Part shown: positions 25,290 through 45,808 of the stretch, piece after piece
How the letters are laid out: every line of letters starts with the position of its first letter
Position numbering within the stretch: the first letter of the stretch is position 1
Source of the DNA: Verrucomicrobiia bacterium
Lineage (GTDB): Bacteria; Verrucomicrobiota; Verrucomicrobiia; Limisphaerales; UBA11358
Assembly (NCBI GenBank): GCA_035545995.1
Contig: DASZXH010000053.1
Span: 188,521 to 252,520 of the forward strand
Reading direction: 5' to 3'
DNA: 64,000 nt
Notes under the pieces: model-generated
The model's input: the letters and a program-made list of their open reading frames with translations, nothing else
What the model was told of the DNA's origin: nothing
Database searches by the model: none
Made by a program: the position numbers and the translations under genes

Positions 25290-27701
25290 ATGTTTAACAT
25301 CTTTATGAAGCATCAATTGCTAATCGCTGGTTTTTTGTGCGCTTGTCTCTCAGTCACTGCGCAACAAGTTTCACTCAAGGAAATTCGCACGGCTTCGCCC
25401 ACTGTCTTGGTGGCTTTTTTCAAAGACGCTTATTGGACAGGCCCGGTTTGGGGTGAGCAGTGGACCAATAACCAAGTGACGACGACCGATTTGTCGTTAT
25501 GGACGCTCAATGGCCAACCCGTGACAGCCGCCAGCAGATTTGTGACCGAGGCAAATGCCGTAGATTATCACATTTACTTGCAGGTGCCGCCTTTGACCAA
25601 TGGAATGATTTATACATTGAACACGCCTTACGGTAACACAAATTTTGTCTTCGATGATACGAAAATTTTCTGCGAGTCCATTAAAGTCAACCAAAATGGT
25701 TATAGCGCTTTGTCTCATACGCGCTATGCCAATTTCGCCATCTGGCTAGGCGACGGCGGAGCCAAACCGATTGGTGGACCCCTTCCCAATTATACTGTGT
25801 TTAACCAATTTACAGGAGAACAGATCGCTTCGGGAACACTGCAAACTGTGACAGCCGCCCAACCGGATTCATCCTCTGGTGATTATGTCTATCGGATTGA
25901 CCTGTCGGGAGTGCCCGAGGGTGGACCTTATATGATTTCCGTGAAGGGTTACGGCTGCTCATATCCCTTTGGCGTGGGTGGAGACTTTTCACGCCGCTTG
26001 GCGTATGTCGCATTCCGCGCCTTGTTTTATAATCGGTGCGGTTGCCCGATTATCGAGCCGTATGCATGGGCCAATATCCGGCCGACTCCTTGTCATACCG
26101 ACATATATGATAGTGAAGGATCGAATCAGTCAGACACCTTTCCTAACGGCACGGTTAAGAAAACTCAACCCGAATTATCTGTGCATGGAGGGTATCACGA
26201 TGCCGGAGACGCAGACCGACGGGCTTACCACCTTATGGTGCCCATGGTATTGTTGACGACTTATGAAGCCTTTCCCAATTTGTTCACTGATAAGCAATTT
26301 AATATACCGGACATTTTTGACGCGGATTTCAACATCATTGGATCAGGCAATGGGATTCCAGATATTCTTGATGAAGCCTGGTGGGGCACGATGCTGTGGA
26401 CCAACCTTCAATTTACCCCCAATGAACCCTCCGGCGCTGTCGCGTGGGGCGTCAATGCCGCAGGCTATCCGGCGTGGGGAATCAACTACGATCAGGACAC
26501 TTTGCTCTGGGGCGTTCAAACTAACGACGTCAATTCCTGTGGTTTGGCAGCCGGGTTGTTCATGCACATGGCTCGGCTCGTTCAACCTTTCAATCCTGAA
26601 CTCAGCGCAAATTTGCAGATACGCGGGGACGCCGCATACAATTATGTCAATTCTGTGCCGGGTTGGTCCATGAAAACGACGCATAAGCTTTATTACGCAA
26701 TTCAGAAGTATTTGCTGACTGGAGATGTGACTGCCAGTAATATCATTGAGTCCTTATATACCACCACAAGCGGATTTACCGGTTCTTACGAAAAACAGCT
26801 TGGAGGTGCTCTCACCGATGGCGGCATCTGGCAAGCGAGCTATTTCATGTCCTATATCCTCGCGACCAATCGGCCTACTGATCCGAATGTTGTCGCTTAC
26901 TTCAAAACGCAACTTCAAGCAGCGGCGGACCATGAAGTTAATTGGGTCAACATTGGCACTTACCCATCGGGTTGGCCTGCGAGCGTTAATCCTACGTCGT
27001 ATAACTTCAGCCAAGGATATTTCACGGACGGAGGACAACTTGGTTATCCATGCCTGCTACAGTGGGCGTTGACAGGAGAGCAGAAGTATATTGATACAGT
27101 TAGCCAGCTTATGGATTATGAGCAAGGTCTTAATCCCATCGGCAAGTGCTACATGACTGGCATTGGATTCGATAGAACCCATAACCCGGAGCAACGTGAA
27201 TCTGCCTACGCAGAATACACTGAGGGATGGGGTGGTCCTCAACCCGGAATTACTGTATACGGTCCCGGCGCGAATGGTCAAACCGCCACGGCCAATCTTC
27301 AGGTGCCGCCTGCCAATAGCCTGCCTCGGGAACGCAAGTGGATGGATGACGTGGGTAACAGTCAATGGGGTGAATTTACTGTCGAAGAGACTGAAGTTTT
27401 CCCGGCGGCTATTTATCCGGTATTAGCACAAGGTGGTAATTGGAAACCCGCGAGTGGCGAACCGTTTCTCAACCCGACTGCCTCTATCCAACCAAATACC
27501 AATGGATGGATGGTTCGATTCGGAGGCATTCCATACCAGAGTTACGTCCTGCAATCGGCGACCGCCATTGGTGGTCCGTGGGTCACAGTGACCGGACCGG
27601 TGGAAGCCGATGTTACAGGCATGGCGCAATTCACAGACACCGCGATGCCAACTTCGGCGACACGATTTTATCGTACCCAAACAGCCGCGCCGATTTATTA
27701 A
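25290..27701 (+). CDS. GH9-like endoglucanase with N-terminal Ig-like (CelD_N-type) domain and a C-terminal beta-sandwich module
   Basis: IKVNQNGY..DYVYRIDLSGVPEGGPYMISVKGYGCSYPFGVG..AFRALFYNRCG has the CelD_N plus GH9 N-terminal pattern. HGGYHDAGDADRR corresponds to the GH9 DAGD motif. The C-terminus ends ..SATRFYRTQ. Confidence 0.65.
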   Translation: MFNIFMKHQLLIAGFLCACLSVTAQQVSLKEIRTASPTVLVAFFKDAYWTGPVWGEQWTNNQVTTTDLSLWTLNGQPVTAASRFVTEANAVDYHIYLQVPPLTNGMIYTLNTPYGNTNFVFDDTKIFCESIKVNQNGYSALSHTRYANFAIWLGDGGAKPIGGPLPNYTVFNQFTGEQIASGTLQTVTAAQPDSSSGDYVYRIDLSGVPEGGPYMISVKGYGCSYPFGVGGDFSRRLAYVAFRALFYNRCGCPIIEPYAWANIRPTPCHTDIYDSEGSNQSDTFPNGTVKKTQPELSVHGGYHDAGDADRRAYHLMVPMVLLTTYEAFPNLFTDKQFNIPDIFDADFNIIGSGNGIPDILDEAWWGTMLWTNLQFTPNEPSGAVAWGVNAAGYPAWGINYDQDTLLWGVQTNDVNSCGLAAGLFMHMARLVQPFNPELSANLQIRGDAAYNYVNSVPGWSMKTTHKLYYAIQKYLLTGDVTASNIIESLYTTTSGFTGSYEKQLGGALTDGGIWQASYFMSYILATNRPTDPNVVAYFKTQLQAAADHEVNWVNIGTYPSGWPASVNPTSYNFSQGYFTDGGQLGYPCLLQWALTGEQKYIDTVSQLMDYEQGLNPIGKCYMTGIGFDRTHNPEQRESAYAEYTEGWGGPQPGITVYGPGANGQTATANLQVPPANSLPRERKWMDDVGNSQWGEFTVEETEVFPAAIYPVLAQGGNWKPASGEPFLNPTASIQPNTNGWMVRFGGIPYQSYVLQSATAIGGPWVTVTGPVEADVTGMAQFTDTAMPTSATRFYRTQTAAPIY

Positions 27702-27794
27702 CCCCAAACTACTCTGCCACTGTTGATGTAACTGATCATCTGCCCGAATCCACATCAGTCACCGCTCAAAGCCCCAAGATTTGAACCGACCTGT

Positions 27795-30140
27795 TTGCGT
27801 AGAGTGCGTTGTGTGAATCTCCTCAGTAAAACTCTTTTGGTTGCTTGGCTCGTCACTTCGGTTTGGGTCTGCACCGCGCAGAATCAAACCCTTCCCGGCA
27901 CCGCACCGCTGACAATGGAAGGTGATATTGCTTCAAATCTGGTCGCGGGCGTCCATCAATTCCTGCTGCGCAAACTGGATGAATCGGTGAATGACGAGGA
28001 GCGATTCTGGCACAGGGATTTTTCCTCATGGCAGGCATACAATCAATCCATAGCCACCAACCGGCAGCATTTGGCCGAAATCCTCGGCGTGTCCGACCAA
28101 CGTGTAGATAAGGTGTCACTTGAACTAATTACCACTCCGAACCGGTCAGCTCTCTGTGGACGCGGAAAAAACTACGAGGTATTCGCCGTGCGCTGGTCAG
28201 CATTCGGAGACGTAACCGGCGAAGGATTGTTGCTTGCACCGATTCATCGCGCACCTATCGCCAATGTTGTCGCTATTCCGGACGCCGACCAAACACCGGA
28301 ACAACTTGCCGGATTGACCGACGGCGTTGCGCCAGAGAGTCAGTTTGCGCGGCGTCTGGCCGAGAGCGGATGCCGGGTAATTGTTCCTGTGTTGATTAGC
28401 CGTCACATGGACCCTAAACGAGAGCTTTCCAACCGGGAATTCATTTATCGGCCAGCCTATGAACTGGGCCGTCACATCATCGGTTACGAAATTGAAAAGG
28501 TAATGGCGGCCATAGATTGGATGAATTTCCAAAGCACGAATTCCAACATCAAAACCGGTGTGATTGGCTGGGGCGAGGGCGGTTTGGAGGCGTTTTATAC
28601 CGCTGCTTTGGACTCGCGAATTCAAGCGGCGTGTGTCAGCGGTTATTTTGATGAACGCCAAAAAGTCATCTGGCAACAACCAATTACCCGCAACATCTTC
28701 GGTTTGCTGGAGGAATTCGATGACGCCGAGGTCGCCACGATGATTATTCCACGTAGCTTAATCATTGAAGCCGCCAAGGGGCCGGAGGTGACAATGCCCG
28801 GTGGCAACGCATATCTGCCGTCGCAAATTGGCAACGGCGCGCCCGGAGTGCTCACAACTCCCAAGCTGGATGACGTCCGCTCGGAATTTCAGCGAGCGCG
28901 CTCAATAGTGGATGGTTTGCATCCATCGCCAGACTTGCAGATGATTGCCAGTGGCGACGACGGGCAAGGACCATTTGGCAGCGAGGCTGCTTTGAGCGTA
29001 TTCTTAAGTGCATTGTCAAGCAATGCCAGTTTGGCGCCATCGGACCCAGCACCTGACAATCTTTGGCCTGATTTCGACCCAGCGGTGCGTCAAGCCGAAC
29101 AGTTGCACGAGTTGGATCGCTATAATCAATGGCTCTTGGCTGAGAGCAAATATACGCGCCAAAAATTCATGACTAAATTCGACACGACATCGCCTGAAAA
29201 ATTTCGCCAGAGCCAAGAATGGTATCGCGATTACTTCTATCGCCAGGAAATTGGACGCTTCGACGAACCGTTGTTGTCGCCCGAACCCCGTTCACGTCTG
29301 ATATACAACCAGACCAACTGGACCGGCTATGAGGTCGTGCTTAATGTGTTCTCAAACGTGTTTGCCAGCGGAATTCTTCTGGTGCCCAAAGACCTTAAGC
29401 CTAGCGAACGCCGGCCAGTCGTCGTTTGTCAACACGGTCTGGAAGGCCGACCGGAAGACACAATAACTGGTGACAGCCACTTTTATCACAATTTCGCTGC
29501 CAAACTGTGCGATCAAGGATTCATCACTTTCTCTCCCCAAGGCATATTTATCTTCGAGGATCGTTTCCGCACTCTTCAGCGCATGGCCAATCCGCTGGGC
29601 AAGACACTGTTCTCAATCATGGTGCCCCAGCAACAACAGATTACCGATTGGCTTGAAACACTACCATTTGTTGACCCAACACGAATTGCTTTTTATGGCT
29701 TGAGCTACGGCGGCAAGACAGCGATGCGTGTGCCGGCAATAGTGACAAACTATTGCCTGTCCATCTGCTCTGGCGATTTCAACGATTGGATATGGAAATG
29801 CGCCTCGACTATCAGCCCTTATAGTTATGTCTGGTCGCCCGAATATGAAATGTTCGAGTTTAACCTTGGCGAAACTTTTAACTATTCCGAGATAGCGGCG
29901 TTGATTGCCCCCCGCCCGTTCATGGTAGAACGAGGGCATAATGACACCGTTGCACCGGATGACCGGGTAGCATATGAATTCGCCAATGTTCGTTATCTCT
30001 ATGAAGCGCGCTTGGGACTTCACGACCAGAGCGATATTTATTGGTTTACCGGCCCGCATGAGATTTATGGCTACGATGACGTCGGAACCTTCAAATTTCT
30101 GCACGAACACCTGAATTGGCCTCCCGGCAACTTACACTAA
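27795..30140 (+). CDS. Large alpha/beta-hydrolase (putative carbohydrate esterase), two hydrolase-like halves
   Basis: Nucleophile elbow FYGLSYGGKTAM, a dienelactone-hydrolase/AXE-like context, and the signal LLVAWLVTSVWVCTAQ. TTG start, so the exact start is uncertain. Confidence 0.6.
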   Translation: MRRVRCVNLLSKTLLVAWLVTSVWVCTAQNQTLPGTAPLTMEGDIASNLVAGVHQFLLRKLDESVNDEERFWHRDFSSWQAYNQSIATNRQHLAEILGVSDQRVDKVSLELITTPNRSALCGRGKNYEVFAVRWSAFGDVTGEGLLLAPIHRAPIANVVAIPDADQTPEQLAGLTDGVAPESQFARRLAESGCRVIVPVLISRHMDPKRELSNREFIYRPAYELGRHIIGYEIEKVMAAIDWMNFQSTNSNIKTGVIGWGEGGLEAFYTAALDSRIQAACVSGYFDERQKVIWQQPITRNIFGLLEEFDDAEVATMIIPRSLIIEAAKGPEVTMPGGNAYLPSQIGNGAPGVLTTPKLDDVRSEFQRARSIVDGLHPSPDLQMIASGDDGQGPFGSEAALSVFLSALSSNASLAPSDPAPDNLWPDFDPAVRQAEQLHELDRYNQWLLAESKYTRQKFMTKFDTTSPEKFRQSQEWYRDYFYRQEIGRFDEPLLSPEPRSRLIYNQTNWTGYEVVLNVFSNVFASGILLVPKDLKPSERRPVVVCQHGLEGRPEDTITGDSHFYHNFAAKLCDQGFITFSPQGIFIFEDRFRTLQRMANPLGKTLFSIMVPQQQQITDWLETLPFVDPTRIAFYGLSYGGKTAMRVPAIVTNYCLSICSGDFNDWIWKCASTISPYSYVWSPEYEMFEFNLGETFNYSEIAALIAPRPFMVERGHNDTVAPDDRVAYEFANVRYLYEARLGLHDQSDIYWFTGPHEIYGYDDVGTFKFLHEHLNWPPGNLH

Positions 30141-30171
30141 CTTCAAATAAATAATCTTAATTTATGCGATA

Positions 30172-30240
30172 CCTATACCATAGGTCTATGACAAACCAAC
30201 CCCAATGTTTCAGTGACAAATTTGAATACTTTAGCCATAC
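30172..30240 (+). promoter_or_regulatory. Conserved upstream box, copy D (closest to consensus)
   Basis: CCTATaccATAGGtctatgacaaaccaaCCCCAATGtttcagTGACAAATTTGAATacTTTAGCCATac; ATG at 30313. Confidence 0.8.
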
Positions 30241-30312
30241 TTCAACCGTTCCAAAAAGCTGCAATGTAGTTTCAAAATTGCAGCTAAAGTAAAAATAAAA
30301 GCAAACAAACGT

Positions 30313-30990
30313 ATGAAAATATCCCTAAATAAACAGTTGTGCCAAATTAGTTTGGCATCGTTGATTCTTGTTGCAAGCGGGGCTGTAAGCCACGCTCAAT
30401 ATACCATAACCTTCAACAGCGCTGCCGACACGAGTTCATGGACAGATGCGGGTCAGACTGTCCACGTCACTTCCTCATTTGTGAATGACACTCCGTCGGG
30501 TCAGTCTCTTTCGACCGGTGCCTTGGGCTTTAGCGGCACCTATGGTCCAGGTGCAACTTTTGGCGGGCTTACCTATGTTTTCCCTGATATCAATGCCCTT
30601 CAATATGCCGATTTGACGTTTTGGGTCAAACAAGAGGGCACACCAGATCAATATGGTCAAATTCAATCTATACAGTTTAATCTTTCAAATTACGGCACTG
30701 GTCTCTATTCAACAGCGACTGTCCAACCAAACTATTCAGGGAGCGGATGGCAACAATTTGTCGTTCCCATCAGCAGTTTCGGTCAGCAAAGCTTGTTGAA
30801 TGACGTCAATCGAATCAACTTATACGTGTTTGATGGCAATTACACCGCCAGCACAACGATGAACATTGCATTCAGTAACATCGCGTTCACTAACCCGGTT
30901 CCCGAACCGTCTTCTTTGTTCATAGGTGGTGCTGGTGCTGGTCTGTTCGGATTCGTTTCTCTGATTCGCCGAAAAATTAATTTTAATTAA
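30313..30990 (+). CDS. PEP-CTERM protein made of one unclassified CBM-like beta-sandwich module
   Basis: The module motifs are FNSAADTSSW, SGQSLSTGALGF, YADLTFWVK, GQIQSIQ, SGWQQFVVP and FSNIAFT. C-terminal PVPEPSSLFIGGAGAGLFGFVSLIRRK is a PEP-CTERM signal. Confidence 0.8.
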   Translation: MKISLNKQLCQISLASLILVASGAVSHAQYTITFNSAADTSSWTDAGQTVHVTSSFVNDTPSGQSLSTGALGFSGTYGPGATFGGLTYVFPDINALQYADLTFWVKQEGTPDQYGQIQSIQFNLSNYGTGLYSTATVQPNYSGSGWQQFVVPISSFGQQSLLNDVNRINLYVFDGNYTASTTMNIAFSNIAFTNPVPEPSSLFIGGAGAGLFGFVSLIRRKINFN

Positions 30991-31016
30991 TTTCATAAAA
31001 CGGAATCATTTAACGC

Positions 31017-31054
31017 AAAACAGAGGGTGTTGGAGTTTGGCACTCTCTGTTTTA
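31017..31054 (+). terminator. Rho-independent terminator after the PEP-CTERM gene
   Basis: Stem cagagggtg (31021-29) / cactctctg (31041-49), 9 bp with one G-T pair, 11-nt loop, then tttt. Confidence 0.6.
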
Positions 31055-31078
31055 GTGTCATTTTGTGCGAATAAAACC

Positions 31079-33340
31079 ATGAAGATGTCTGTAAACTGGT
31101 GTCAGGCTGTCTTGGCCTGTTTGCTCTCTACCGCTGGTACTGGAACCGGTTATGGCCAGATTACCAACTGGGTTGCCACATTCAATTCCAGTGCCGACAC
31201 GGCCCTGTGGTCGCATCAAAGCGGCGATTCGGCAACCGATTATATAAGTTTTCTGGCCGGAGACGCCCCGCCGGGGCAAACCAATTCGAGCGGTTGTATG
31301 GTATTGCAATGTGCCTTTGGTCCGAGTCTTACTTGGACTGTAATTGGAAAAAATGTCCACGGCATAAATGTGAGCAACTGCACTGCTTTGGAACTCGATG
31401 TCAAAGTTGACCCCGCTCAGGCGGTTTTTGACACGTTCGGCAACGCTTGTAATTCATTTGAAATTACTCTCGGATGCGGTAGTTCAGACACATGGTTCAC
31501 CACCGATACGGGAGCTATCACCCCAATTGCTGCGTACAACGGCTGGGAACACATTGTTGTTCCAGCCAGCGCTTTTGCCGGTTACATCCAAGGAGTGAAC
31601 ACTAATTGGGCCAATGTTCAATGGGTTCTTATTGAGCCGGTTGACGGCTATTTCCCGATCACCACGAATATGGTTCTTAGAATAGCTAACGTGAAGTTCA
31701 CCGCTCCTGCCCCAATACCAGCCAATCCGACCATCAGTGTTAATGCCAGCAACACTGTTCGCACTGCCGACGCGCGTTGGTTTGGCATCAACACAGGCAA
31801 TTATGATTACGATTTCAACCTTCAACATACCATTCCCGAAGCCAATGAAGCCGGTTGGACAACGCTGCGTTATCCCGGCGGTTCAACATCCGACGCGTAT
31901 CATTGGGCACATGAAACTCAACTGAACAACACTTACGCCCATTTTGCGCAAGTTGCTACCAACTTGGGAGCCAATGTCATCATTACCGCCAATTACGGCA
32001 CTGGCACACCCGCCGAGGCGGCAGGGTGGGTCGCCGACGCAAACGTGACCAATCATTACGACTTCAAGTATTGGGAAATTGGCAATGAAGTATATGCCAC
32101 CGGGACAGAGATTGATTCCAACACTCCCGCGCACGATCCTTATACTTACGCTTCGCGCGCGGCGCAATACATCCAACAAATGAAAGCCGTTGATCCCGCC
32201 ATCAAAATTGGTGTTGTTGTGGTCAAAGGCGAACAACTCGACAACAACGGTTACACTAACCATCCGGCCATCAATTTGGTAACCGGCCAAGCCTTCACCG
32301 GCTGGACTCCCGTCGTAATGAGCACCTTGAGACAATTGGGCGTCGCTCCCGACTTTGCCATCTATCATTATTATCCCGAGAACTATCCATCTTCGCCAGA
32401 TAACGACCAGAAACTTCTGGTGATGAACAATTGGGCCGACGATGCGGCGGAGTTGCGCGGTGAAATCAACGATTTCTTTGGTCCAGCCGGCACGAACATC
32501 GAAATACTCATCACCGAAAACAACAATGATGCCGGTAATCCTGGCAAACAATCCGTCAGCCTTGTCAATGCCCTGTATTACGCCGATAGCCTCGGCCAAA
32601 TTATGCAGACGGAGTTCAATGCACGCATTTGGTGGCAACTACACGATGGCGGCCCTCCTTACACCACCGGGGACATGAACGCAAATCTCTACGGCTGGCG
32701 ACCCTACGGCGCTTTCGGCTTGATGGACTGGCAAAACGGTCTGGTATTGACTAATCGTTATCCACCCTTTTTCGCTGCTAAGCTAATCCACCACTTCATT
32801 GGCGGCGGCGACAAGGTGGTCAGCGTCTCCAGCGATTTGCCACTGGTTTCCGCCTACGCCGCCTTACGAACCAACGGTGACCTGACCCTCATGCTCATCA
32901 ACAAGAGCGCCACATCCAATTATCTAGCCAACATAGGATTGACCAATTACATGCCCGGTTCAACGGCCACGGTCTATTCCTACGGGATGCCGCAGGACAA
33001 TGCGGCCAAGGCCGGCGACAACAACTGCGACATCACAACCAATGCTTACAGTGTCAGCGCGAACTTTAATTACACTCTCGCGCCCTACTCCATTAACGTC
33101 ATTGACTTTTCATCGGCACCGGCGGCTCCCTTGCTCTCGGTTCTGCCGCTGTCCGAGTCCGGGCAATTTGTTTTCCAACTGGCCGGTCAATCAGGTTCCT
33201 ATGTGTTGCAAACTTCCACTAATTTATCAGACTGGACAACAGTGGCCACCAACACTTTGACAAACACTGTGCTTAACGTCACCAATCCCATCAGTTCAGA
33301 AACAGGCGTGCAATTCTGGCGCGCCGTGCAGTTTCAGTAA
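31079..33340 (+). CDS. Secreted clan GH-A glycoside hydrolase (GH51/GH79-like) with N-terminal CBM-like module and C-terminal beta-sandwich module
   Basis: Start moved to ATG 31079, because the track start 31037 lies inside the terminator hairpin. Motifs LRYPGGSTSDAYHW, KYWEIGNE (acid/base) and ILITENN (nucleophile candidate). Paralog of the gene at 40687..43512. Confidence 0.65.
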   Translation: MKMSVNWCQAVLACLLSTAGTGTGYGQITNWVATFNSSADTALWSHQSGDSATDYISFLAGDAPPGQTNSSGCMVLQCAFGPSLTWTVIGKNVHGINVSNCTALELDVKVDPAQAVFDTFGNACNSFEITLGCGSSDTWFTTDTGAITPIAAYNGWEHIVVPASAFAGYIQGVNTNWANVQWVLIEPVDGYFPITTNMVLRIANVKFTAPAPIPANPTISVNASNTVRTADARWFGINTGNYDYDFNLQHTIPEANEAGWTTLRYPGGSTSDAYHWAHETQLNNTYAHFAQVATNLGANVIITANYGTGTPAEAAGWVADANVTNHYDFKYWEIGNEVYATGTEIDSNTPAHDPYTYASRAAQYIQQMKAVDPAIKIGVVVVKGEQLDNNGYTNHPAINLVTGQAFTGWTPVVMSTLRQLGVAPDFAIYHYYPENYPSSPDNDQKLLVMNNWADDAAELRGEINDFFGPAGTNIEILITENNNDAGNPGKQSVSLVNALYYADSLGQIMQTEFNARIWWQLHDGGPPYTTGDMNANLYGWRPYGAFGLMDWQNGLVLTNRYPPFFAAKLIHHFIGGGDKVVSVSSDLPLVSAYAALRTNGDLTLMLINKSATSNYLANIGLTNYMPGSTATVYSYGMPQDNAAKAGDNNCDITTNAYSVSANFNYTLAPYSINVIDFSSAPAAPLLSVLPLSESGQFVFQLAGQSGSYVLQTSTNLSDWTTVATNTLTNTVLNVTNPISSETGVQFWRAVQFQ

Positions 33341-33364
33341 CGCAGAACAATTGGCACGCGACGT

Positions 33365-36096: not shown

Positions 36097-36166
36097 CCTA
36101 TCCCGCGGGAGTAGAACAATCCAGCCCCAATGTTTTAGTGACAAATTCATGTGTTTTAGCCATGCT
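36097..36166 (+). promoter_or_regulatory. Conserved upstream box, copy E
   Basis: CCTATcccgcgggaGTAGaacaatccagCCCCAATGttttagTGACAAATTCATGTgtTTTAGCCATgc; ATG at 36225. Confidence 0.8.
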
Positions 36167-36224
36167 ACTAACAATTCTTTAGAAACCAGTTATTATAATT
36201 CAGTCATCCAACGCAATTAAATCT

Positions 36225-39200
36225 ATGAAAAAAATCAGGAACCTCATGAAAACATTCTGCGCCAGGCATTTGTTTCGGGTAGGATTGGCAGGTTTATTTC
36301 TTGCCGTAAGCGCCACCGTTGGCTACGGCCAGATTAATTATACTTTCAACAGCAGCAACGACACCACCAATTGGTTGGATGCGAGTCAAAGTGTTACAGT
36401 CACTCCGTCTTTCATAGCCGGCGATGCTCCTCCGGGGCAGGCTCTTTCCACCGGCTCTTTGGGCTGGACAGGCACTTTTGATAATGCGGGTCATACCTTT
36501 GGCGGACTCAGCGTTTCGTTTCCTGCCACCGATTTGACCGGCTATGGCAATCTCGAATTTGATGTTAAGATCAAGGGGGCTACAGATCCCAACGGCCAAA
36601 TCCAAGAGCTACAGCCAATTTTGGTTCAAAGTGGCGCTGGCCCCGATGGTTCAACTTGGAATCAATCGAGCGTCACGATAGCGCTTACCACAGTTAGCAC
36701 TAACAACGGTTGGCAGCACATTGTCATTCCGCTCAACACCTACACAAATGGAACCTTGGGTAGTACTGTGCAACTCATGCTAGCTGTATTTGACGCCAAT
36801 TTTACAAGCGCAACAAGTGTGCAATTGGCATTTGACAATATCCAAGTCACTGGACAGGCGCCCACCGGGCTTACTTACTATGTAAGCATCTTCAATAGCG
36901 CCAATGATATTACTAATTGGCAGTTTATAAATAACTTTGACCCAACGGTCAGCAGTTCGTTTGTTCCCGGTGATGCTCCTACAAACGGACCGTCAACGGG
37001 TTGCATGGAGATGTCCGCTTTATTTAACACCACCTACTTTAAGTATGAAATGGCATATAGATTTGTTGATGCCGGTAGGCTTTCTCCAGCTCTCACCAAC
37101 TACAACGCCTTGGAATTTGACCTCAAGGTTGGCACCAACGGAGCCGGCCAGCTTTCGCCCTTGGATAGTAATGGTTATAACTGTCAGGAATGGGACTGGG
37201 AACTCGTTGTTAACGACAGCTATGTGAATGGTGGAGGTGGTAACATTGGGGCTCCCCTCACCAATAACCTTAGCAACAACGGTTGGTCACATTTCAGGGT
37301 TCCGGCCTCTGCTTTTGGATACTCTTCCGGCTATTTCGGAGGCATGATAAACGGCATGAATGTTACTAATATGTATCAGGTCAACCTCTACCCGCACGAT
37401 CCTAACTTTCCTTCAGATACGACTGTTTACTATAAAATCACCAACATCAAGTTCACAGGGCCTGGAGCTACACCAATTTACTCAGGTTTGAACAGTCGGA
37501 CAATCACCTATGGCGTCAATAGTGTGATATTGACGGGCACAGTGAGTGATGGCAATGGGAACTATTTGCCCAGCAACACTGTTGTTAGCGTGACTATCAA
37601 TGGTAAAACGCAGAGCACCAATATTTATGATTCGACGGGAGATTTCACCATCAATTACAACCTCGCCGGATTACCGCCCAGTTCCACGCCCTATACGATT
37701 ACTTATTCAAATGTCACCGATAATGTTACGTTCAGTGCTGGAAGTGATTCGAGTACGACTTTAACATTCAACAAAGTGGCGGTGCAGTTGTTCGGCACCC
37801 GTGCTTTTGACGGGACGGCGACCGCGTCAGCCTCGATTCTTTCGGTGGTGAACCTTGTGCCCGGAGATAGTTTGACATTGTCCGGGAGCGCCACGCTGGC
37901 CAGTTCTGCTGTTGGAACGCAACCCATTACTGACTTCAGTGGACTGACGTTGGGCGGCGCGTCGGCAGCAGGTTACACATTAGTCGGAGCCAGCGGATCG
38001 GTTTCGATAACAGCATCTGGCCCGGTTACACCCAGATTTTCAGGTTTAACTAGTCACACCATTACTTACGGGGCAACAAGTGTCGCGTTGACGGGTATAG
38101 TGAGCACCAACGGCACCTATCCGCCTAATGGCACTCTTATTACTGTGACCATCAATGGAAATGCGCAAACCACTACTATTTCCGATTCGACGGGAGACTT
38201 CAGCATCAATTATAATACTACCGGCCTGCCGGCCGGCACGTACACCGTCAACTATCAATCTGCCGTCGCAACTGGTTTTAATGCCGCAAGCGATTCGAGC
38301 ACCACATTGACGGTCAATAAGAGACCGGTAGCTTTGACTGGAACCAGTGTTTATAACGGGACGACAAGTGTTCCGGCATCCGCTCTTTCGGTGATAAATC
38401 TTATTGGCAGTGATAGCTTGACACTCAGCGGCAGCGTTGGGCTGGCAAGCGGCAATGTGGGGGTGGAAACCGTTGCTTCTTCCGGTGCATTAACATTGGG
38501 CGGCTCGGCGGTGGCGAATTATACTGCAGTCGGAGCCAGTGGTTCAGTGACCGTCACGCCGGCAACATTAACTTATGTGGCGACGCCAACAAGTCAGAAT
38601 TTTGGTTCGGCCAATACTAATTTCACCGGAACGGTAACTGGTTTTCTCGGCAGCGACACGTTAGCCAACGCCACGACAGGCACGTTGGCATTTACGAGCA
38701 GAATAACGCCAACCAGTCTGGGTATTTGGGGCATTACTGGTTCGGGTTTGTCGGCTGTCAATTATGTCTTTGTTCAGGCTGCTGGCAATGCCACTGCGCT
38801 GATGATAACGCCTTGCGGCCCAGTAGTCGCGCTTACTAACTGGGTTGGCATCTTCAACAGCGATGCAGACACTGCTGGATGGGTGACGAGCGCAGGCGCA
38901 GCAATCGGATATTTTTATCCCGACGCTCCTCCGTCAGGTCCTTCTACAGGCTGCCTAATTTGGGAAGCTGCCTTTGGCGGTGGAAATCCATCCTTCAATG
39001 GTATTTCGACGAACCTTCCCCATTTGAATGTCCGCAACTACACTACTCTTGAGATGGACATCAAGAATGAAGGTGTTTATGACCGATTCAGCCAAATTCA
39101 AGCGATACAAGTGAATCTTTCATTCGGTAGTGTTACGTTCAAAGCACCGGATATTCAGCTTCACAGCCCCGCGAATAGTGATTGGGTCCATTATTCGATT

Positions 39201-39896
39201 CCGCTCAGCAACTTTGTTACCGGGACCAACGTGGATTTGTTGACTAATGTCACCACACTGACTCTCAATATTTTTGATGGCAACTTCAGCACCGCTGCAA
39301 CCGCAGACATTGGATTCGCGAACATTGAATTCACCGGCGGCCAAGGTGTCGTGCCTGTTTTCTCGAATTTGAGCAGCAAGACCATTGCGACCGGCACTAC
39401 CAGTGTAATATTGACAGGCAAGGTGGGTTCCTGCGGAGCGGCTTATCTGCCGGTTAATACCCCTGTCACCGTGACCATCAATGGGAATACGCAAACCACC
39501 GCTATTTCTGATTCGACAGGAGATTTCAACATCAATTACAATACCACCGGCTTGGCGAACGGCACTTATCCGGTCACCTATTCATCTGCCGCCGACAACG
39601 TTGTCTTTGCTCCCGCAACTGACACGAGCACCACATTGACCGTAAGTAGTTCGGCGCCTCCAAACTCTCCAACTATCCTGCCGGTTTCTCGGGATGCCAC
39701 GGGCACAAACTTGGTAGTCAGAGTGGAGGCGACTCAAGTTGGACATAATTATTATCTGCTGTCCACAACCAGTCTGACTCCGCCGGTGATTTGGTCAACC
39801 AACAGCATCACCGCCGGAACCGGTGGAACCATCACCAATCTGGTGCCCATAAGTCTGTCTTCACCAGACGTGTTCTTCAAATATCTGGTGCAGTGA
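36225..39896 (+). CDS. 1223-aa modular secreted protein: 3 CBM-like modules, 3 INGNxQTT-type modules, 3 MBG-type repeats, C-terminal beta-sandwich module
   Basis: Signal peptide. CBM-like modules at about 36330-36861, 36879-37461 and 38831-39340. Repeats carry TVTINGNAQTTxISDSTGDFxINYNTTGLP and RAFDGTATA..LSV.NLV.GD.LTLSGS..LAS..VG.Q.ITDFSGLTLGG..A..YTLVGASG (MBG-like). No catalytic motif recognised. Confidence 0.8.
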   Translation: MKKIRNLMKTFCARHLFRVGLAGLFLAVSATVGYGQINYTFNSSNDTTNWLDASQSVTVTPSFIAGDAPPGQALSTGSLGWTGTFDNAGHTFGGLSVSFPATDLTGYGNLEFDVKIKGATDPNGQIQELQPILVQSGAGPDGSTWNQSSVTIALTTVSTNNGWQHIVIPLNTYTNGTLGSTVQLMLAVFDANFTSATSVQLAFDNIQVTGQAPTGLTYYVSIFNSANDITNWQFINNFDPTVSSSFVPGDAPTNGPSTGCMEMSALFNTTYFKYEMAYRFVDAGRLSPALTNYNALEFDLKVGTNGAGQLSPLDSNGYNCQEWDWELVVNDSYVNGGGGNIGAPLTNNLSNNGWSHFRVPASAFGYSSGYFGGMINGMNVTNMYQVNLYPHDPNFPSDTTVYYKITNIKFTGPGATPIYSGLNSRTITYGVNSVILTGTVSDGNGNYLPSNTVVSVTINGKTQSTNIYDSTGDFTINYNLAGLPPSSTPYTITYSNVTDNVTFSAGSDSSTTLTFNKVAVQLFGTRAFDGTATASASILSVVNLVPGDSLTLSGSATLASSAVGTQPITDFSGLTLGGASAAGYTLVGASGSVSITASGPVTPRFSGLTSHTITYGATSVALTGIVSTNGTYPPNGTLITVTINGNAQTTTISDSTGDFSINYNTTGLPAGTYTVNYQSAVATGFNAASDSSTTLTVNKRPVALTGTSVYNGTTSVPASALSVINLIGSDSLTLSGSVGLASGNVGVETVASSGALTLGGSAVANYTAVGASGSVTVTPATLTYVATPTSQNFGSANTNFTGTVTGFLGSDTLANATTGTLAFTSRITPTSLGIWGITGSGLSAVNYVFVQAAGNATALMITPCGPVVALTNWVGIFNSDADTAGWVTSAGAAIGYFYPDAPPSGPSTGCLIWEAAFGGGNPSFNGISTNLPHLNVRNYTTLEMDIKNEGVYDRFSQIQAIQVNLSFGSVTFKAPDIQLHSPANSDWVHYSIPLSNFVTGTNVDLLTNVTTLTLNIFDGNFSTAATADIGFANIEFTGGQGVVPVFSNLSSKTIATGTTSVILTGKVGSCGAAYLPVNTPVTVTINGNTQTTAISDSTGDFNINYNTTGLANGTYPVTYSSAADNVVFAPATDTSTTLTVSSSAPPNSPTILPVSRDATGTNLVVRVEATQVGHNYYLLSTTSLTPPVIWSTNSITAGTGGTITNLVPISLSSPDVFFKYLVQ

Positions 39897-39921
39897 CCGA
39901 TTGAACAACTTGCAGTTCATT

Positions 39922-39960
39922 GGAGGATGCTAATCTTTTAGCATCCTCCAAGTGTTTTAT
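39922..39960 (+). terminator. Terminator hairpin after the modular protein gene
   Basis: Perfect 12-bp stem ggaggatgctaa (39922-33) / ttagcatcctcc (39938-49), loop tctt, followed by aagtgtttt (weak T tract). Confidence 0.65.
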
Positions 39961-40498: not shown

Positions 40499-40552
40499 AT
40501 TCGCCACGCAATCAGAAGAAAGACCAGTATTTAGATAGTCTTGACAAACTCA

Positions 40553-40620
40553 CCTATGCCAAGGGTGTGGAATTGTCCCATCCTAATGTTGGGTTGACAA
40601 GTTCGCGTTTTCGGCAAGGA
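40553..40620 (+). promoter_or_regulatory. Conserved upstream box, copy F (more divergent)
   Basis: CCTATGCCaagggtgtggaattgtcccatCCTAATGttgggtTGACAAGTTCGCGTtTTCGGCAAGga; ATG at 40687. Confidence 0.65.
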
Positions 40621-40686
40621 TTGCTTACAGAATAAAACTGTAAAACATATCATTCGTGTTCGTGAGCACTTTCTCCCCAAGAATTC

Positions 40687-43512
40687 ATGGCCATAATCAT
40701 ATTTAGTCTTCTGAGAAAACTGTTGGGCAAACGATGGTTACATTCCGGCTTAATATGTGTGCTTCTCACCGGAAGTGGGGAAGATAGTTATGGTCAGATA
40801 ACAAACTTGGCTAACATAACTATCAGTGTCAACACCGGCAATACTATACGGACCGCCGACACGCGTTGGTTCGGCATCAACGCGAGTGTCTATGATCCCG
40901 ATCTTAATATTCAGGATGGCATTCCCGAAATCAACAAAGCCGGTTGGCAGACTTTGCGCTTCCCGGGCGGTTCAATCGCCGACACATATCATTGGGCGCA
41001 AAACAATGTCAGTCGCAATAATACCTACGCCAACTTTGCCAAAGTTGCCACCAACATGGGAGCCACTGTCATCCTTACTGTCAATTATGGCAGCGGCACG
41101 GCCGCCGAAGCAGCGGCGTGGGTCGCAGACGCGAACGTGACGAATCATTACGGCTTCAAGTATTGGGAAGTGGGCAACGAAGAATATGGCACGTATGAAA
41201 CCGATAACCACGCTCGCCCGCATGACCCTTATACCTACGCGACGAACTTTGCGGCTTACATTCAACAAATGAAAGCCATTGATCCCACAATCAAAGTCGG
41301 TGTCGTTCTTGACTTGAACCCAACCGCCGACTCCAACGGCTACACCGACCATCCGGCCACCAATCTTGTTACTGGCCAGATATTTTATGGTTGGACCCCA
41401 GTCGTACTAAGCACATTGAGACAACTGGGCGTGACGCCCGATTTCGGCATTCACCATTGGTATCCTGAAAATTCGCCTACTCCAGAAAACGATCAAACGC
41501 TCCTTGCAGGGACGGGTAGCATAGTTGCCAACGCATCGACCCTACGCGGAGAGATCACCCAGTATTTCGGTTCGGGTGGCACGAACATTGAGTTGCTCGT
41601 CACCGAAAACAACAGTTATTCCGGCACACAAGGCAAGCAATCCGTTAGCTTGGTCAATGGTCTTTATTACGCCGACAATCTGGGGCAATTGATGAAGACG
41701 GAGTTCAATGCCTTGGTCTGGTGGGATTATACCGACTCGGGTCCGGGCACCAGCGGAAATCTAAGTTCGAGCCTCTATGGATGGCGGATGTATGGCGACT
41801 TCGGTGTAATGATGACTGGAGCCGCGGAGCCATTGACCAACCGTTATCCTCAATACTTCGCCGCCGAGTTGATGTCTCATTTTATTCGGGCTGGCGACAC
41901 GGTGTTGAATGCATCGAGCAGTAATCCGCTGGTTTCAGCTTATGCGGCGCAACGCACCAATGGTTCATTGACCTTGTTGGCCATTAACAAAAGTCTTGTG
42001 ACAAATTATCCGGTGAGTATATCACTGGCCAATTATACTCCTCTTGAGACAGCTACGCTTTACTCTTATGGTATGCCGCAAGACAACGCGGCTAAAGCGG
42101 GCAACAACTTGGGTTGCGACGTGGCGCAAACCAATATTTCTGGAGTCAGCACGAATTTCACTTACATCCTCGCGCCATATTCCATGACCATCTTCGCCTT
42201 CATGCCGGCAACTTCCTTCTTGGGGTTAAATAACCGAACTATCACTTATGGAACTTCCAGCGTGACGTTGACAGGCATACTGACCACCAACGGCACGTAT
42301 CCGCCCAGTGGAACTGTTGTCGCCGCGACCATCAACGGTAATGCACAAAACACTACCACTTATGACTCAACGGGAGATTTTACCCTCAACTACAACACCA
42401 CGGGATTGTCTGCAAGCGCCACGCCTTACACAGTCACCTACTTATCCGCCGCGAATGGCGGCTTTCCCGCCGAAACCAATGCAGCCACTACTTTGACAAT
42501 CAATCCGCTGCCGGTGGTCTTGACGGGAACTCGCTTTTATGATGAAACAGCGACCGCAACGGCGGCAATCCTATCGGTGTCGAACCTCGTAGGTAGCGAT
42601 GACGTGATATTGAGCGGCAGCGTGGGGTTGGCTGGTGTCGCCATAGGACCAGAGGCCATCACTGATTTCAGCGGACTGACTTTGAGCGGTGTGGCGGCGA
42701 CAAATTACACGTTGGTCGGAGCCAGTGGCACAGTGACAGTAGCAGCTTATCCCACGCCGCAATTCTCAGGTTTGATCAATCAGAGTATTGCTTACGGAAG
42801 TCCCAGCGTAATATTGACGGGCACGCTAGGGACTAATGGCGCTTATCCGCCCAGCGGCACTGTTATCACAGTGACTATCAATTTTTCGCCGCAAACTACC
42901 ACCATTTACGATTCAACGGGAGATTTTATCATCAATTACAATACTGTTGGCCTGCCGGCTTTTCCATTCAGTGTTGCTTATTCCTCCGTTGCGGGCGGTG
43001 GTTTCAGCGCTGCAACTAACGCGAACACCACCTTGACGGTCAATCCCGTGCCGGTGATTTTGACTGGCACACGCGCTTATGACGGAACGGCGACTGCGGC
43101 GGCGGCGATTCTTTCGGTGGCAAATCTTGTTGGAAATGACAATGTGACATTGACTGGCAACGTCGGATTGGCTGGTACTGGTGTGGGAACACAGGTTATC
43201 ACCGACTTTAGCGGGTTGACTTTGGCAGGAGCAGCGATGTGGGATTACACACTTATTGGGGCAAGCGGCACGGTGACAATAACGGCAGGCGGGATAACAT
43301 TAGGTGACATTAGCGTTGATGGCGCTCAATTCATTTTTAACTATCCAACTATTATTGGACAGACTTATCAGGTTGAATACTGTACTAATCTCAGTTCGGG
43401 TGTGTGGTTTCCTGTTGGCGACCCGGTGACTGGCACTGGCGCGCCGGTTTCGGTAACCAACAGTATTGATTCCTCGGCGCAGAAATTCTTCAGGCTATCA
43501 ATAACGCCCTGA
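40687..43512 (+). CDS. Secreted clan GH-A glycoside hydrolase (paralog of 31079..33340) + 2x(INGN module + MBG repeat) + C-terminal beta-sandwich module
   Basis: LRFPGGSIADTYHW, KYWEVGNE, LLVTENN. The repeats lie at about 42213-43290. C-terminus GAQFIFNYPTIIGQTYQVEYCTNLSSGVW..KFFRLSITP. Confidence 0.7.
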   Translation: MAIIIFSLLRKLLGKRWLHSGLICVLLTGSGEDSYGQITNLANITISVNTGNTIRTADTRWFGINASVYDPDLNIQDGIPEINKAGWQTLRFPGGSIADTYHWAQNNVSRNNTYANFAKVATNMGATVILTVNYGSGTAAEAAAWVADANVTNHYGFKYWEVGNEEYGTYETDNHARPHDPYTYATNFAAYIQQMKAIDPTIKVGVVLDLNPTADSNGYTDHPATNLVTGQIFYGWTPVVLSTLRQLGVTPDFGIHHWYPENSPTPENDQTLLAGTGSIVANASTLRGEITQYFGSGGTNIELLVTENNSYSGTQGKQSVSLVNGLYYADNLGQLMKTEFNALVWWDYTDSGPGTSGNLSSSLYGWRMYGDFGVMMTGAAEPLTNRYPQYFAAELMSHFIRAGDTVLNASSSNPLVSAYAAQRTNGSLTLLAINKSLVTNYPVSISLANYTPLETATLYSYGMPQDNAAKAGNNLGCDVAQTNISGVSTNFTYILAPYSMTIFAFMPATSFLGLNNRTITYGTSSVTLTGILTTNGTYPPSGTVVAATINGNAQNTTTYDSTGDFTLNYNTTGLSASATPYTVTYLSAANGGFPAETNAATTLTINPLPVVLTGTRFYDETATATAAILSVSNLVGSDDVILSGSVGLAGVAIGPEAITDFSGLTLSGVAATNYTLVGASGTVTVAAYPTPQFSGLINQSIAYGSPSVILTGTLGTNGAYPPSGTVITVTINFSPQTTTIYDSTGDFIINYNTVGLPAFPFSVAYSSVAGGGFSAATNANTTLTVNPVPVILTGTRAYDGTATAAAAILSVANLVGNDNVTLTGNVGLAGTGVGTQVITDFSGLTLAGAAMWDYTLIGASGTVTITAGGITLGDISVDGAQFIFNYPTIIGQTYQVEYCTNLSSGVWFPVGDPVTGTGAPVSVTNSIDSSAQKFFRLSITP

Positions 43513-43633
43513 ACTTCCTGCTTCTCATGAATTGCCATTAATCATATTGAATATATTAGATGGAGTTTGGACATTTTTTGGTTGGTTTGATTCGTTGCCC
43601 GCCGTCACGGTTAACGATACGGTTGCTTAAGTA

Positions 43634-43706
43634 CCTATGCTGAAGGCATAGTAAAATCCAACCTTAATGTTTTGATGACAAGTTTGAATATTTTACCTAG
43701 AGTTGA
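43634..43706 (+). promoter_or_regulatory. Conserved upstream box, copy G
   Basis: CCTATGCtgaagGCATAGtaaaatccaaCCTTAATGttttgaTGACAAGTTTGAATatTTTACCTAGag; ATG at 43765. Confidence 0.8.
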
Positions 43707-43764
43707 ATTCTGTTTGTGAGAAAGTGTAGTTCATAGTTCAAATCATCCAACAAAATTCATACCA

Positions 43765-45564
43765 ATGAAAACATTCAGGCATCTTCTAAAAACACCTCTA
43801 AAAAAGCGATGGCTTCGGGCTAGCCTGGCAGGTTTGATTCTGACTGTCGTCACCAAGGTCGGCTACGTCTGTGAAACCTCGGCTGGGACTAATGATGTTA
43901 TTCCGAGGAGTTTTTTCGGCCTGCATGGTATGGGCTATGGTTCCAATGGAAATCCAGTTCCATACCAGCCTTGGGGCTTAATAAGAACGTGGGACCATTG
44001 GGGGAATGGCAACATCAGTTGGGCGGGGCTTGAGCCGTCAAAGGGAACTTTTAACTGGACAGCAATGGATGCGACAGTGAATGCGGTCACAAATTTAAAT
44101 GTCGCCATTCTCCACTGTTTCGGCGCGGGGCCAAGTTGGGCGGGCGGCACTGCGCCAACCAACATCTTGGATTGGGATCTCTTCATTACCAACTTTGTAA
44201 CCCGTTACCATACGAAAATAAAATATCTGGAGACTTGGAATGAGGCCATGGCTGGAGAAGGCTTTTATACAGGAACCACTCCGATGCTTGTGCAGATGGA
44301 ACACGATCTTTATACGATAACGAAATCCATTGATCCGACCATCACGGTGCTGACGCCGGACGCAACCGGCGGCAAGGGGAACATGACGATATTTTACAGT
44401 CAGTATTTTGCTGCCGGAGGCACGAATTGCGATGCTGTCGCTTTTCACGGCTATTGCAGCGAGGCCGGCGTGGCTAATCAGATTTGTTATCCAGAAGAGA
44501 TCATAGGCATCGTCGGGAATCTGAAGGCCGCGATGAATGCTTATGGTCAAGGCTCGAAACCCATCTTTTGCACGGAAGGAGACTGGGGGTCTGAAGGGAG
44601 CGGTGCAAATCAGCCCACGACGAATGATGCTGTGGCTTTCTTGGCGCGGCACTACCTTCTCATGTGGTCGTTGGGAGTATCGAGCTATGCTTGGTATGAC
44701 TGGGAGAATAATAACGGGTATTGGCAATGGGGGGAGCTGTGGGACCCGACCTACGGCCTCGGTGCTGCGGGAATTGCGTACCAGCAATTATACTATTGGA
44801 TGGTGGGCGCCAAGATGAGCCAACCCGCTACGAACCAGGGTTCGGTTTACACCTGCGGCTTCACCCGGCCCGGCGGCTATCAAGCCTTGGCGGTCTGGAA
44901 TACCAACAGAACTTCCACTTCCTCGTTCACGGTTCCAAACGGCTACGTCCAGTACCGCGACCTTGTGGGCAACTTGTATAGCATAAGTGGAACAACGGTT
45001 ACCATCGGAATCGAGCCAATTCTGCTTGAAAATATGAACGAGCCCATATTCTCAGGTTTGACCAGCCACACCAATACTTATGGCGTTGCCAGCGTGACAC
45101 TGACGGGCTCAGTGAGCTCCTACGGCACCTATCCGCCCAAGGGCACCGCTGTCACCGTGACCATCAATGGAAATGCGCAGGGGACCACCACTTCTGATAC
45201 GAATGGGGATTTTAGCATCAATTACAACACCACCGGCCTGCCGGCCAGCCCTACGCCTTATACCGTTACCTATTCAAATGCCGCTGCCGGCAGCTTCCCA
45301 GCCGCAACCGATACGAGTAGCACTTTGACAATCAATCCGCTGCCAGTGGTCTTAAACGGACTCAGTGCCAACGGCACGCAGTTCATTTTCAGCTACCCGA
45401 CTATTGCGGGGCAGACCAACCAGCTTCAATATAGCACCAACCTCAGTTCAGGCGTGTGGTTGCCGGCGGGCGACCCGGTTGTGGGCACAGGCGTGCCAGT
45501 CTTGGTGACCAACAGCATCAATCCCTCAATGCAGATGTTCTTCAGGCTGTCCATAACGGAATAA
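43765..45564 (+). CDS. Secreted clan GH-A glycoside hydrolase (GH39/GH5-like) + INGN module + C-terminal beta-sandwich module
   Basis: IRTWDHWGNGNISWAGLEPSKGTFNW, YLETWNEA (acid/base candidate), IFCTEGDWG (nucleophile candidate). C-terminus GTQFIFSYPTIAGQTNQLQYSTNLSSGVW..MFFRLSITE. Confidence 0.6.
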   Translation: MKTFRHLLKTPLKKRWLRASLAGLILTVVTKVGYVCETSAGTNDVIPRSFFGLHGMGYGSNGNPVPYQPWGLIRTWDHWGNGNISWAGLEPSKGTFNWTAMDATVNAVTNLNVAILHCFGAGPSWAGGTAPTNILDWDLFITNFVTRYHTKIKYLETWNEAMAGEGFYTGTTPMLVQMEHDLYTITKSIDPTITVLTPDATGGKGNMTIFYSQYFAAGGTNCDAVAFHGYCSEAGVANQICYPEEIIGIVGNLKAAMNAYGQGSKPIFCTEGDWGSEGSGANQPTTNDAVAFLARHYLLMWSLGVSSYAWYDWENNNGYWQWGELWDPTYGLGAAGIAYQQLYYWMVGAKMSQPATNQGSVYTCGFTRPGGYQALAVWNTNRTSTSSFTVPNGYVQYRDLVGNLYSISGTTVTIGIEPILLENMNEPIFSGLTSHTNTYGVASVTLTGSVSSYGTYPPKGTAVTVTINGNAQGTTTSDTNGDFSINYNTTGLPASPTPYTVTYSNAAAGSFPAATDTSSTLTINPLPVVLNGLSANGTQFIFSYPTIAGQTNQLQYSTNLSSGVWLPAGDPVVGTGVPVLVTNSINPSMQMFFRLSITE

Positions 45565-45785: not shown

Positions 45786-45808
45786 TCACTGCTTCGACTG
45801 TGAAAAAT

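Follow-up and report, generated by a model that had tools for sequence, protein, structure and literature searches.

A compact C-terminal beta-sandwich module shared by exported proteins of a Verrucomicrobiia carbohydrate-degradation cluster belongs to an uncatalogued, lineage-enriched domain family

In soil and freshwater, Verrucomicrobiota of subdivision 3 are abundant and degrade polysaccharides, and, to our knowledge, it is poorly understood how their large enzymes come to lie beyond the outer membrane. This question is raised by a 64,000-nucleotide stretch from a Verrucomicrobiia bacterium of the Limisphaerales (GenBank assembly GCA_035545995.1, contig DASZXH010000053.1, positions 188,521 to 252,520 of the forward strand; the whole stretch is referred to as the window), where a cluster of carbohydrate-active enzyme (CAZyme) genes encodes five proteins with signal-peptide-like N-termini (5/5), i.e. 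one enzyme of glycoside hydrolase (GH) family 9, three enzymes of clan GH-A and a 1223-aa protein with three domains resembling carbohydrate-binding modules (CBMs). An original prediction, made from the sequence, held that all five are secreted and end in the same C-terminal module, a candidate sorting or attachment signal distinct from PEP-CTERM. The last 62–68 residues of the five plus-strand open reading frames (ORFs) do align with one another, and the module they define is a genuine, widespread and lineage-enriched domain family without a curated model, whose C-terminal bias is striking, although not absolute. The five proteins and their modules (window coordinates; E values of the modules are those of the external-only profile described below) are as follows.

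Host ORF 1, 25290..27701, plus strand: 803 aa; signal peptide, CelD_N Ig-like domain, GH9 catalytic domain and module (Pfam Glyco_hydro_9, 4e-19; CelD_N, 8e-9).
Its module, 27480..27698, plus strand: the most divergent copy, ending in ...RFYRTQTAAPIY; E 2.2e-07, ORF residues 747-807 of 812.
Host ORF 2, 31079..33340, plus strand: 753 aa; signal peptide, CBM-like domain of ~190 aa, clan GH-A barrel (GH51-like) and module.
Its module, 33137..33337, plus strand: ending in ...QFWRAVQFQ; E 2.7e-13.
Host ORF 3, 36225..39896, plus strand: 1223 aa, a modular binding protein; signal peptide, three CBM-like domains, YDG/MBG/Ig-like repeats and module (Pfam YDG, 6e-15; MBG_2, 5e-7).
Its module, 39681..39893, plus strand: ending in ...FFKYLVQ; E 8e-11.
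Host ORF 4, 40687..43512, plus strand: 941 aa; signal peptide, clan GH-A barrel (distant GH51 match), YDG/Ig-like repeats and module.
Its module, 43297..43509, plus strand: ending in ...FFRLSITP; E 5.8e-29; the copy used for modelling.
Host ORF 5, 43765..45564, plus strand: 599 aa; signal peptide, clan GH-A barrel (distant GH10/GH42-like match), Ig-like domain and module.
Its module, 45349..45561, plus strand: ending in ...FFRLSITE; E 5.1e-27.

The similarity of the tails was examined with a profile built from 110 module instances from outside the window, from which the window rows had been removed, against the six-frame translation of the whole 64 kb (848 ORF fragments). Exactly five ORFs were matched, each at its extreme C-terminus, with no sixth copy in the window. 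All five E values were at or below 2.2e-07 and the next-best match had an E value of 0.25, a clear gap which shows that the similarity is real and rules out chance resemblance; the test was not fully independent, because the external sequences had been recruited with a window-derived profile. The copies of host ORFs 4 and 5 are 71% identical, and the remaining pairs, which fall between subtypes, share ~20–33% identity. The homology thus predicted for five secreted proteins is borne out by alignment and profile, but it holds at the profile level and not at the level of a pattern: the literal consensus that had been proposed matches none of the five tails (0/5), because its W-x10-25 spacing is at least one residue too short and several other positions deviate. 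The proposed extent of the module was likewise correct in its alignment and short at its N-terminal side, where the domain begins ~5 residues further upstream with an additional strand.

The module is an autonomous domain of ~65–70 aa. Homologue searches with two module alignments returned 8 and 23 short fragments, none of them informatively named, which were used as rows for structure prediction. The AlphaFold2 model of the host ORF 4 tail, computed from a 30-row alignment (predicted local distance difference test, pLDDT, 91.5; predicted template modelling score, pTM, 0.75), is an all-beta sandwich with five long and two short strands and no helix, so that the beta-sandwich expected beforehand was obtained with confidence. 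Near-invariant positions are Y19, L27, W32 and R61, and the terminal strand has the form [FY][FY]R-x4-5. The module is preceded by a short Pro-enriched linker, in which no conserved motif, including a cleavage motif, was found. As the original prediction had supposed, no established family accounts for it: neither Pfam-A nor NCBIfam gave any match over the tails of the five window proteins, and no PDB family covers the module. When 115 diverse instances were scanned singly against Pfam and NCBIfam at E<=1, no family recurred, the commonest being Root_cap (5/115) and F5_F8_type_C_2 (3/115), both sub-threshold. A Foldseek search of the model against the PDB gave no match with E<=1e-3 (all E>=0.035), and no description of the module was found in the literature searched.

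Among known domains, the best fold matches were FN3 domains together with a few CBM or Ig-like ones, with template modelling (TM) scores of 0.55–0.64; they included neogenin, IL-12R, monobodies and the Fn3 domain of the pectate lyase PelI, and in structure the FN3/Ig-like accessory domains of bacterial glycoside hydrolases are the closest known kind, the FN3 matches having root-mean-square deviations of 3.4–4.9 A and E values of 0.1–0.4. The predicted structure is thus a compact FN3/Ig-like beta-sandwich, with a weak likeness to FN3 and Ig, that belongs to no curated family. In contrast to FN3 modules, which typically are internal linkers, the module sits terminally, and fn3 (PF00041) was absent from the list of families that any of the 115 instances matched at E<=1. 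A second resemblance is to discoidin domains (F5_F8 type C, CBM32). The module profile run against all PDB sequences had its best match (E 0.011) in a 41-residue local alignment with the discoidin-type chitosan-binding modules 2rv9 and 4zy9, through the motif 'v.l.W....sY.iqvS....W..v'. Discoidin domains are, however, jelly rolls of ~140 aa, about twice the size of the module, only ~40 residues align, the fold matches are poor (TM ~0.3), and the F5_F8 type C/CBM32 profile gave nothing but sub-threshold matches in 4 of the 115 instances. In the module itself, positions 5–45 (e.g. window 43324-43446), with the form 'v.f.W....G.sYqlqyS.nL...W..vg', align with the central discoidin/CBM32 strands of 2rv9 and 4zy9, a likeness that may reflect either a remote common origin with one half of a jelly roll or convergent evolution. 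PPC (PF04151), a beta-sandwich of ~70 aa which usually occurs in one or two copies at the C-terminus of secreted enzymes, is alike in size and place, but none of the 115 instances matched it over the module and the cargo of the module is far broader than peptidases. Membership in PPC and in the dockerin family was accordingly rejected, there being no profile match among these instances; in one relative (P0002) a PPC domain is present elsewhere in the protein, at residues 165–241. The possibility that the module is an integral beta-sandwich of the GH-A catalytic domain was also rejected, since Ig-like repeats separate it from the barrel and unrelated cargo carries it as well.

The size of the family was estimated in two ways. 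With a profile of the five window sequences, 3398 representative clusters were detected at E<=1e-3 and 113 at E<=1e-10 in a library of 1.84 billion representatives. Genomes were searched with a degenerate DNA pattern for the motif variant Y-V-[ILF]-Q-[AT]-S-T-[DN]-L-x-x-W, present in host ORF 2 as Y-V-L-Q-T-S-T-N-L-x-x-W. Across 185,579 species genomes at least 119 loci were found, compared to the ~3 matches expected by chance from the degeneracy of the pattern and 1.19e12 positions, and 114 of the loci listed carry the module by profile; viral contigs gave no match to the pattern. Just one of the five copies in the window fits this narrow pattern, so that actual numbers per genome probably exceed those found several-fold. 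Among the matches listed, to which all figures for genome loci, their ORFs and neighbours given here and below refer, 100/114 module loci were labelled Verrucomicrobiota (Verrucomicrobiia, 'subdivision 3', Limisphaerales or Pedosphaera), and the other 14 were unclassified or assigned to Hydrogenedentota, Binatia, Sulfopaludibacter, Patescibacteria and, in five metagenome-assembled genomes, 'Bifidobacteriaceae'. The family is therefore large and resides mostly in Verrucomicrobiota of the Limisphaerales/Pedosphaera type, and we suspect that the non-verrucomicrobial labels belong to mislabelled bins. The contigs named 'uncultured Bifidobacteriaceae' that carry the module by profile are L019, L038, L058, L079 and L106.

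The terminal position of the module holds well beyond the window. Among the best 150 library matches, the module ended within 10 aa of the C-terminus in 86/87 single-copy proteins and the array reached the C-terminus in 57/63 multi-copy proteins, so that 143/150 ended with a detected copy; of the seven exceptions, five end in a divergent copy missed by the profile (...FYRVDKL, ...FFRLRGL etc.), one has a different domain following and one is seemingly truncated. Genome ORFs, which were seeded by the motif and not by position, gave the same picture, with 114/123 ending within 12 aa of the stop and a single copy in 122/131. Altogether the module closes the protein in 93–99% of cases. The end itself is also regular: the stop follows 4–5 residues past [FY][FY]R in 199/255 terminal copies, and most copies finish with P (124) or Q (77). 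Internal copies in arrays likewise have P at this position, followed by a Pro-rich linker, which indicates that the gene simply stops at the domain boundary. Short matches that resembled stand-alone module proteins of ~100 aa were rejected as a separate class, being gene fragments or internal-Met calls.

The claim that the module is always terminal is nevertheless false at the family level. Tandem arrays comprise 2–10 copies (the maximum of 10 in protein P0007), and in ~7% of proteins (9/123 ORFs) the module is internal or directly follows the signal peptide. Frequent internal copies, which the original prediction had regarded as contradicting it, were thus found in part, in these ~7% and in the arrays, and both argue against an obligate C-terminal export signal. 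In L022 (4313-5677, plus strand) and L076 (3293-6694, minus strand) the module comes straight after the signal peptide and so opens the mature protein, preceding in L076 an S8 subtilase with Calx-beta repeats, and in L051 a further 207-aa region lies beyond it. A conserved family of ~1000 aa present in L030, L057, L060 and L067 (e.g. L060:2989-5979, minus strand) has two or three mid-protein copies followed by a conserved C-terminal region of ~350 aa. This family is the main exception to the terminal rule, and PEP-CTERM ORFs occur nearby in some of its 8 kb loci, e.g. in L060 and L057.

The association with exported proteins, claimed from the five window proteins, extends to other genomes: a signal-peptide-like N-terminus was recognised by a crude heuristic in 43/60 complete module ORFs and in 99/308 control ORFs from the same loci (p=1.5e-8), a contrast that gives the direction and not the exact rate, because the control set includes spurious ORFs. 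The cargo is diverse. Library relatives carry YDG repeats (22/70), as well as MBG, fn3, Ig, LamG, PATR, cohesin and PKD domains, the fn3 matches being whole-protein matches without position, which may or may not overlap the module. At the genome loci the module is joined to CHB_HEX_C/Fn3_assoc, arylsulfotransferase, PA14, GH9 (two cases), GH44, S8 and kumamolisin-type (S53) peptidases and beta-propellers. Since these partners are diverse and of extracellular type, a generic role is favoured over a substrate-specific one. Orthologs of four window proteins retain the module at the C-terminus with 70–75% identity, compared to 67–85% for the remainder of the protein (73% in the module of P0115, an ortholog of host ORF 2, and 75% in that of P0053, an ortholog of host ORF 3). 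The module is thus conserved like the rest of the protein, as expected of ordinary purifying selection and co-evolution with its cargo without homogenisation within the genome. No relative of the full-length host ORF 4 protein was found among the contigs of species-representative genomes.

A further property came from two window proteins that had been predicted to use PEP-CTERM, which was confirmed for both.

Comparator PEP-CTERM protein, 30313..30990, plus strand: Pfam PEP-CTERM at 3.4e-05; N-terminal domain of ~190 aa paralogous to domains of host ORFs 2 and 3.
Second PEP-CTERM protein, 2462-3292, minus strand: Pfam PEP-CTERM.

The ~190-aa CBM-like domain, which has a weak Pfam match to CBM30, occurs once in the comparator (30313-30990), once in host ORF 2 (31079-31750) and three times in host ORF 3 (within 36225-39300), all on the plus strand. 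In a BLASTP search the comparator domain matched host ORF 3 with 40% identity (E 4e-38, three internal matches) and host ORF 2, listed from 31037, with E 4e-16. Hence the same domain is followed either by PEP-CTERM or by the module, so that either ending can be used, a 'choice of anchor' pattern: the two are interchangeable on a paralogous domain, which fits an alternative C-terminal destination tag. Both stand at the C-terminus of exported proteins and, within one genome, on paralogs, yet they differ in kind. PEP-CTERM consists of a ~25-aa motif, a transmembrane helix and a basic tail, whereas the module is, in the AlphaFold model, a folded all-beta domain with no hydrophobic helix. In the window the Pfam PEP-CTERM profile matched only the two ORFs above and none of the module tails; membership of the module in PEP-CTERM was rejected on both grounds, in agreement with the separation originally proposed.

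The comparison with the C-terminal domains (CTDs) of the type IX secretion system (T9SS) of Bacteroidota, to which the module had been likened, held for its position and failed in other respects. Like the CTDs (Por_Secre_tail or type A, CHU_C or type B), the module is predicted to be a small beta-sandwich and lies at the extreme C-terminus of enzymes and adhesins with signal peptides, it has a very diverse cargo and it marks just a subset of exported proteins. Unlike them it is shorter, forms tandem arrays and is occasionally internal, so the single-copy, obligately terminal rule of CTDs is broken by the 2–10-copy arrays and by the 9/123 ORFs mentioned above. The CTD profiles (Pfam Por_Secre_tail and CHU_C; NCBIfam) matched neither the five proteins nor the 115 instances at E<=1, and no CTD structure was among the best 50 Foldseek matches. 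We know of no T9SS in Verrucomicrobiota. In one description the system is confined to the Fibrobacteres-Bacteroidetes-Chlorobi group (PMC11205867). CTD membership was therefore rejected on profile, copy number and lineage.

What such a domain does was approached by weighing these properties together. Our tentative preference, held at well under even confidence, is that the module is a C-terminal surface-localisation (retention) domain and an alternative to PEP-CTERM. A multi-domain extracellular protein would be exported by Sec with the folded module at its C-terminus, after which the module would hold the enzyme or adhesin at the envelope or matrix of the producer by non-covalent binding, serving as an alternative to the PEP-CTERM route of paralogs in the same genome; tandem duplication would add avidity or reach. 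The terminal place of the module, its fixed tail, its presence on some but not all exported proteins and its alternation with PEP-CTERM tie the role to the final location of the protein and speak against a mere spacer, and the arrays of up to 10 copies with occasional non-terminal ones fit a self-sufficient binding domain better than an export signal. Several observations weigh against surface retention. The 8 kb loci contained no conserved neighbour gene that suggests a receptor or machinery. The residues conserved in the module (Y, L, W, aromatic-aromatic-R) are such as usually make up a sandwich core, and no conserved surface site was identified when conservation was read from the sequence. 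With subtypes in one genome only ~20–33% identical, any receptor shared by all of them would need to recognise features of the fold, and the strict end of the ORF behind its last strand is compatible with an export signal or a protective cap too.

The very strong terminal bias and the tail of 4–5 residues ending mostly in P or Q are indeed what an export or sorting tag would produce, i.e. a C-terminal domain read by an outer-membrane translocation or attachment system of these Verrucomicrobiota, perhaps removed afterwards, and acting as a functional analogue of the T9SS CTDs. Such a tag would also suit the signal peptides of the carriers, the short Pro-rich linker upstream, the alternation with PEP-CTERM on a paralogous domain and, in the window, the presence of the module on a subset of exported proteins that appear to be the polymer-active ones. 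We nevertheless regard it as unlikely, given that an export signal would not be expected in arrays of up to 10 copies or, in ~7% of proteins, at internal or N-terminal places, that there is neither a conserved upstream cleavage motif nor a recurrent machinery gene within 8 kb, and that likeness to T9SS CTD profiles or structures is missing in a lineage outside the described range of that system. Its far-reaching form, in which the module would label cargo for a so far unrecognised pathway of outer-membrane export or surface attachment in Verrucomicrobiota of the Limisphaerales/Pedosphaera type and would be an independently evolved functional counterpart of the T9SS CTD, working in parallel to PEP-CTERM/exosortase, appears improbable to a similar degree. 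A quite different role, as a small CBM-like domain directing enzymes to insoluble plant or microbial polysaccharide, is suggested by the GH9, GH44, GH51-like and other CAZymes among the carriers, by the tandem copies typical of CBMs, by the weak but recurrent discoidin/CBM32 similarity (2rv9/4zy9, E 0.011; F5_F8_type_C sub-threshold in 4/115) and by CBM56 among the weak fold matches. This substrate-binding role seems to us distinctly unlikely: the peptidases, arylsulfotransferases and YDG/MBG/Ig/PATR adhesin-like cargo have no common glycan substrate, the window proteins already possess separate CBM-like domains, a terminal position in 93–99% exceeds what we would expect of CBMs, and no match was significant for a module half the size of a discoidin domain. 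Finally, the module might be a passive FN3/Ig-like cap, stabilising the protein, for instance, against periplasmic C-terminal proteolysis, or spread by domain shuffling, with no specific ligand and no role as a signal. The FN3 domains among its best, albeit weak, fold matches, its core-like conserved residues, an ortholog conservation no higher than that of the remaining protein and arrays resembling beads-on-a-string stalks all agree with this, but a spacer has no evident reason to come last in more than 90% of proteins or to keep a fixed distance from last strand to stop, and the other Ig-like repeats of the same proteins (YDG, MBG) are internal, so that a purely passive function is also rather doubtful.

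The idea of a dedicated sorting or attachment machinery gained nothing from the gene neighbourhood: clustering of the neighbours in the 8 kb loci (119 loci) revealed no machinery gene recurring beside module genes. Large neighbour 'families' that looked like candidates were rejected as antisense or alternative-frame artefacts of repeat proteins. The neighbours that do recur encode LuxR-type regulators, prepilin/DUF1559-like proteins or PEP-CTERM proteins and are of kinds expected to be common in these genomes. Independent of its function, the module is an accessory beta-sandwich on exoproteins, familiar in kind, and the family itself was previously uncatalogued; it marks out candidate members of the surface/exoproteome by sequence alone, gives a testable handle on the placement of enzymes outside the outer membrane, and merits a family model, so that such tails no longer go unannotated.

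The three GH-A enzymes with the module are divergent, with weak PDB matches to GH51 and GH10. The catalytic region of host ORF 2 is 58% identical to relatives of host ORF 4, its paralog with a weak GH51 match. For host ORF 2 the listed start is a TTG at 31037 (767 aa), and the ATG at 31079 (753 aa) is likelier. This ORF resembles in domain layout Lim81, a characterised endoglucanase of Limisphaera of ~757 aa with a signal peptide, CBM8 (residues 32–170), GH51 (residues 219–599) and ~150 unannotated residues at its end (PMC13608581), the comparison being one of layout. In connection with the ~190-aa CBM-like domain of the window ORF, the similar Lim81 bears a CBM8 annotation (PMC13608581). Just past the hydrophobic stretch of their signal peptides, three module proteins have G/S-Y-G-Q-I-[TN] in common (TGYGQITNW, VGYGQINYT and DSYGQITNL at 31139-31165, 36318-36344 and 40786-40812, plus strand). 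Cleavage may thus occur at a conserved site, with Gln as the new N-terminal residue.

Other enzymes of the window have signal-peptide-like N-termini without the module, and a prepilin-type protein is encoded in the same stretch, which, with this protein and its PEP-CTERM proteins, has a verrucomicrobial look.

33365-35812, minus strand: GH29 fucosidase without module.
45758-49426: GH31 enzyme without module.
49423-53760 and 4489-7239: two GH2 enzymes without module.
16706-18886: GH3 enzyme without module.
27795-30140: esterase without module.
12836-13657: prepilin-type N-methylation protein.

We infer that the proteins with the module would work on extracellular polymers, and the enzymes lacking it on oligosaccharides. 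The GH29 alpha-L-fucosidase has an isochorismatase-like region fused at its N-terminus and begins with a twin-arginine-like motif (MKRREFLTK...).

Two features elsewhere in the window deserve mention. At 55982-57872 on the minus strand, the ORF of a DyP-type peroxidase is followed directly downstream by that of an encapsulin shell protein (Linocin_M18, E 5e-94), with an overlap of 8 nt between them. The C-terminus of the peroxidase, ...SLNIGSLKGKKHE, looks like an encapsulin cargo-loading peptide, and the arrangement looks like a classic encapsulin-DyP pair. A tRNA-Pro (TGG) at 12066-12143 (plus strand) is overlapped by an opposite-strand ORF at 12057-12764 (minus strand), whose upstream part resembles a C-terminal fragment of a tyrosine recombinase and may be the remnant of an integrated element.

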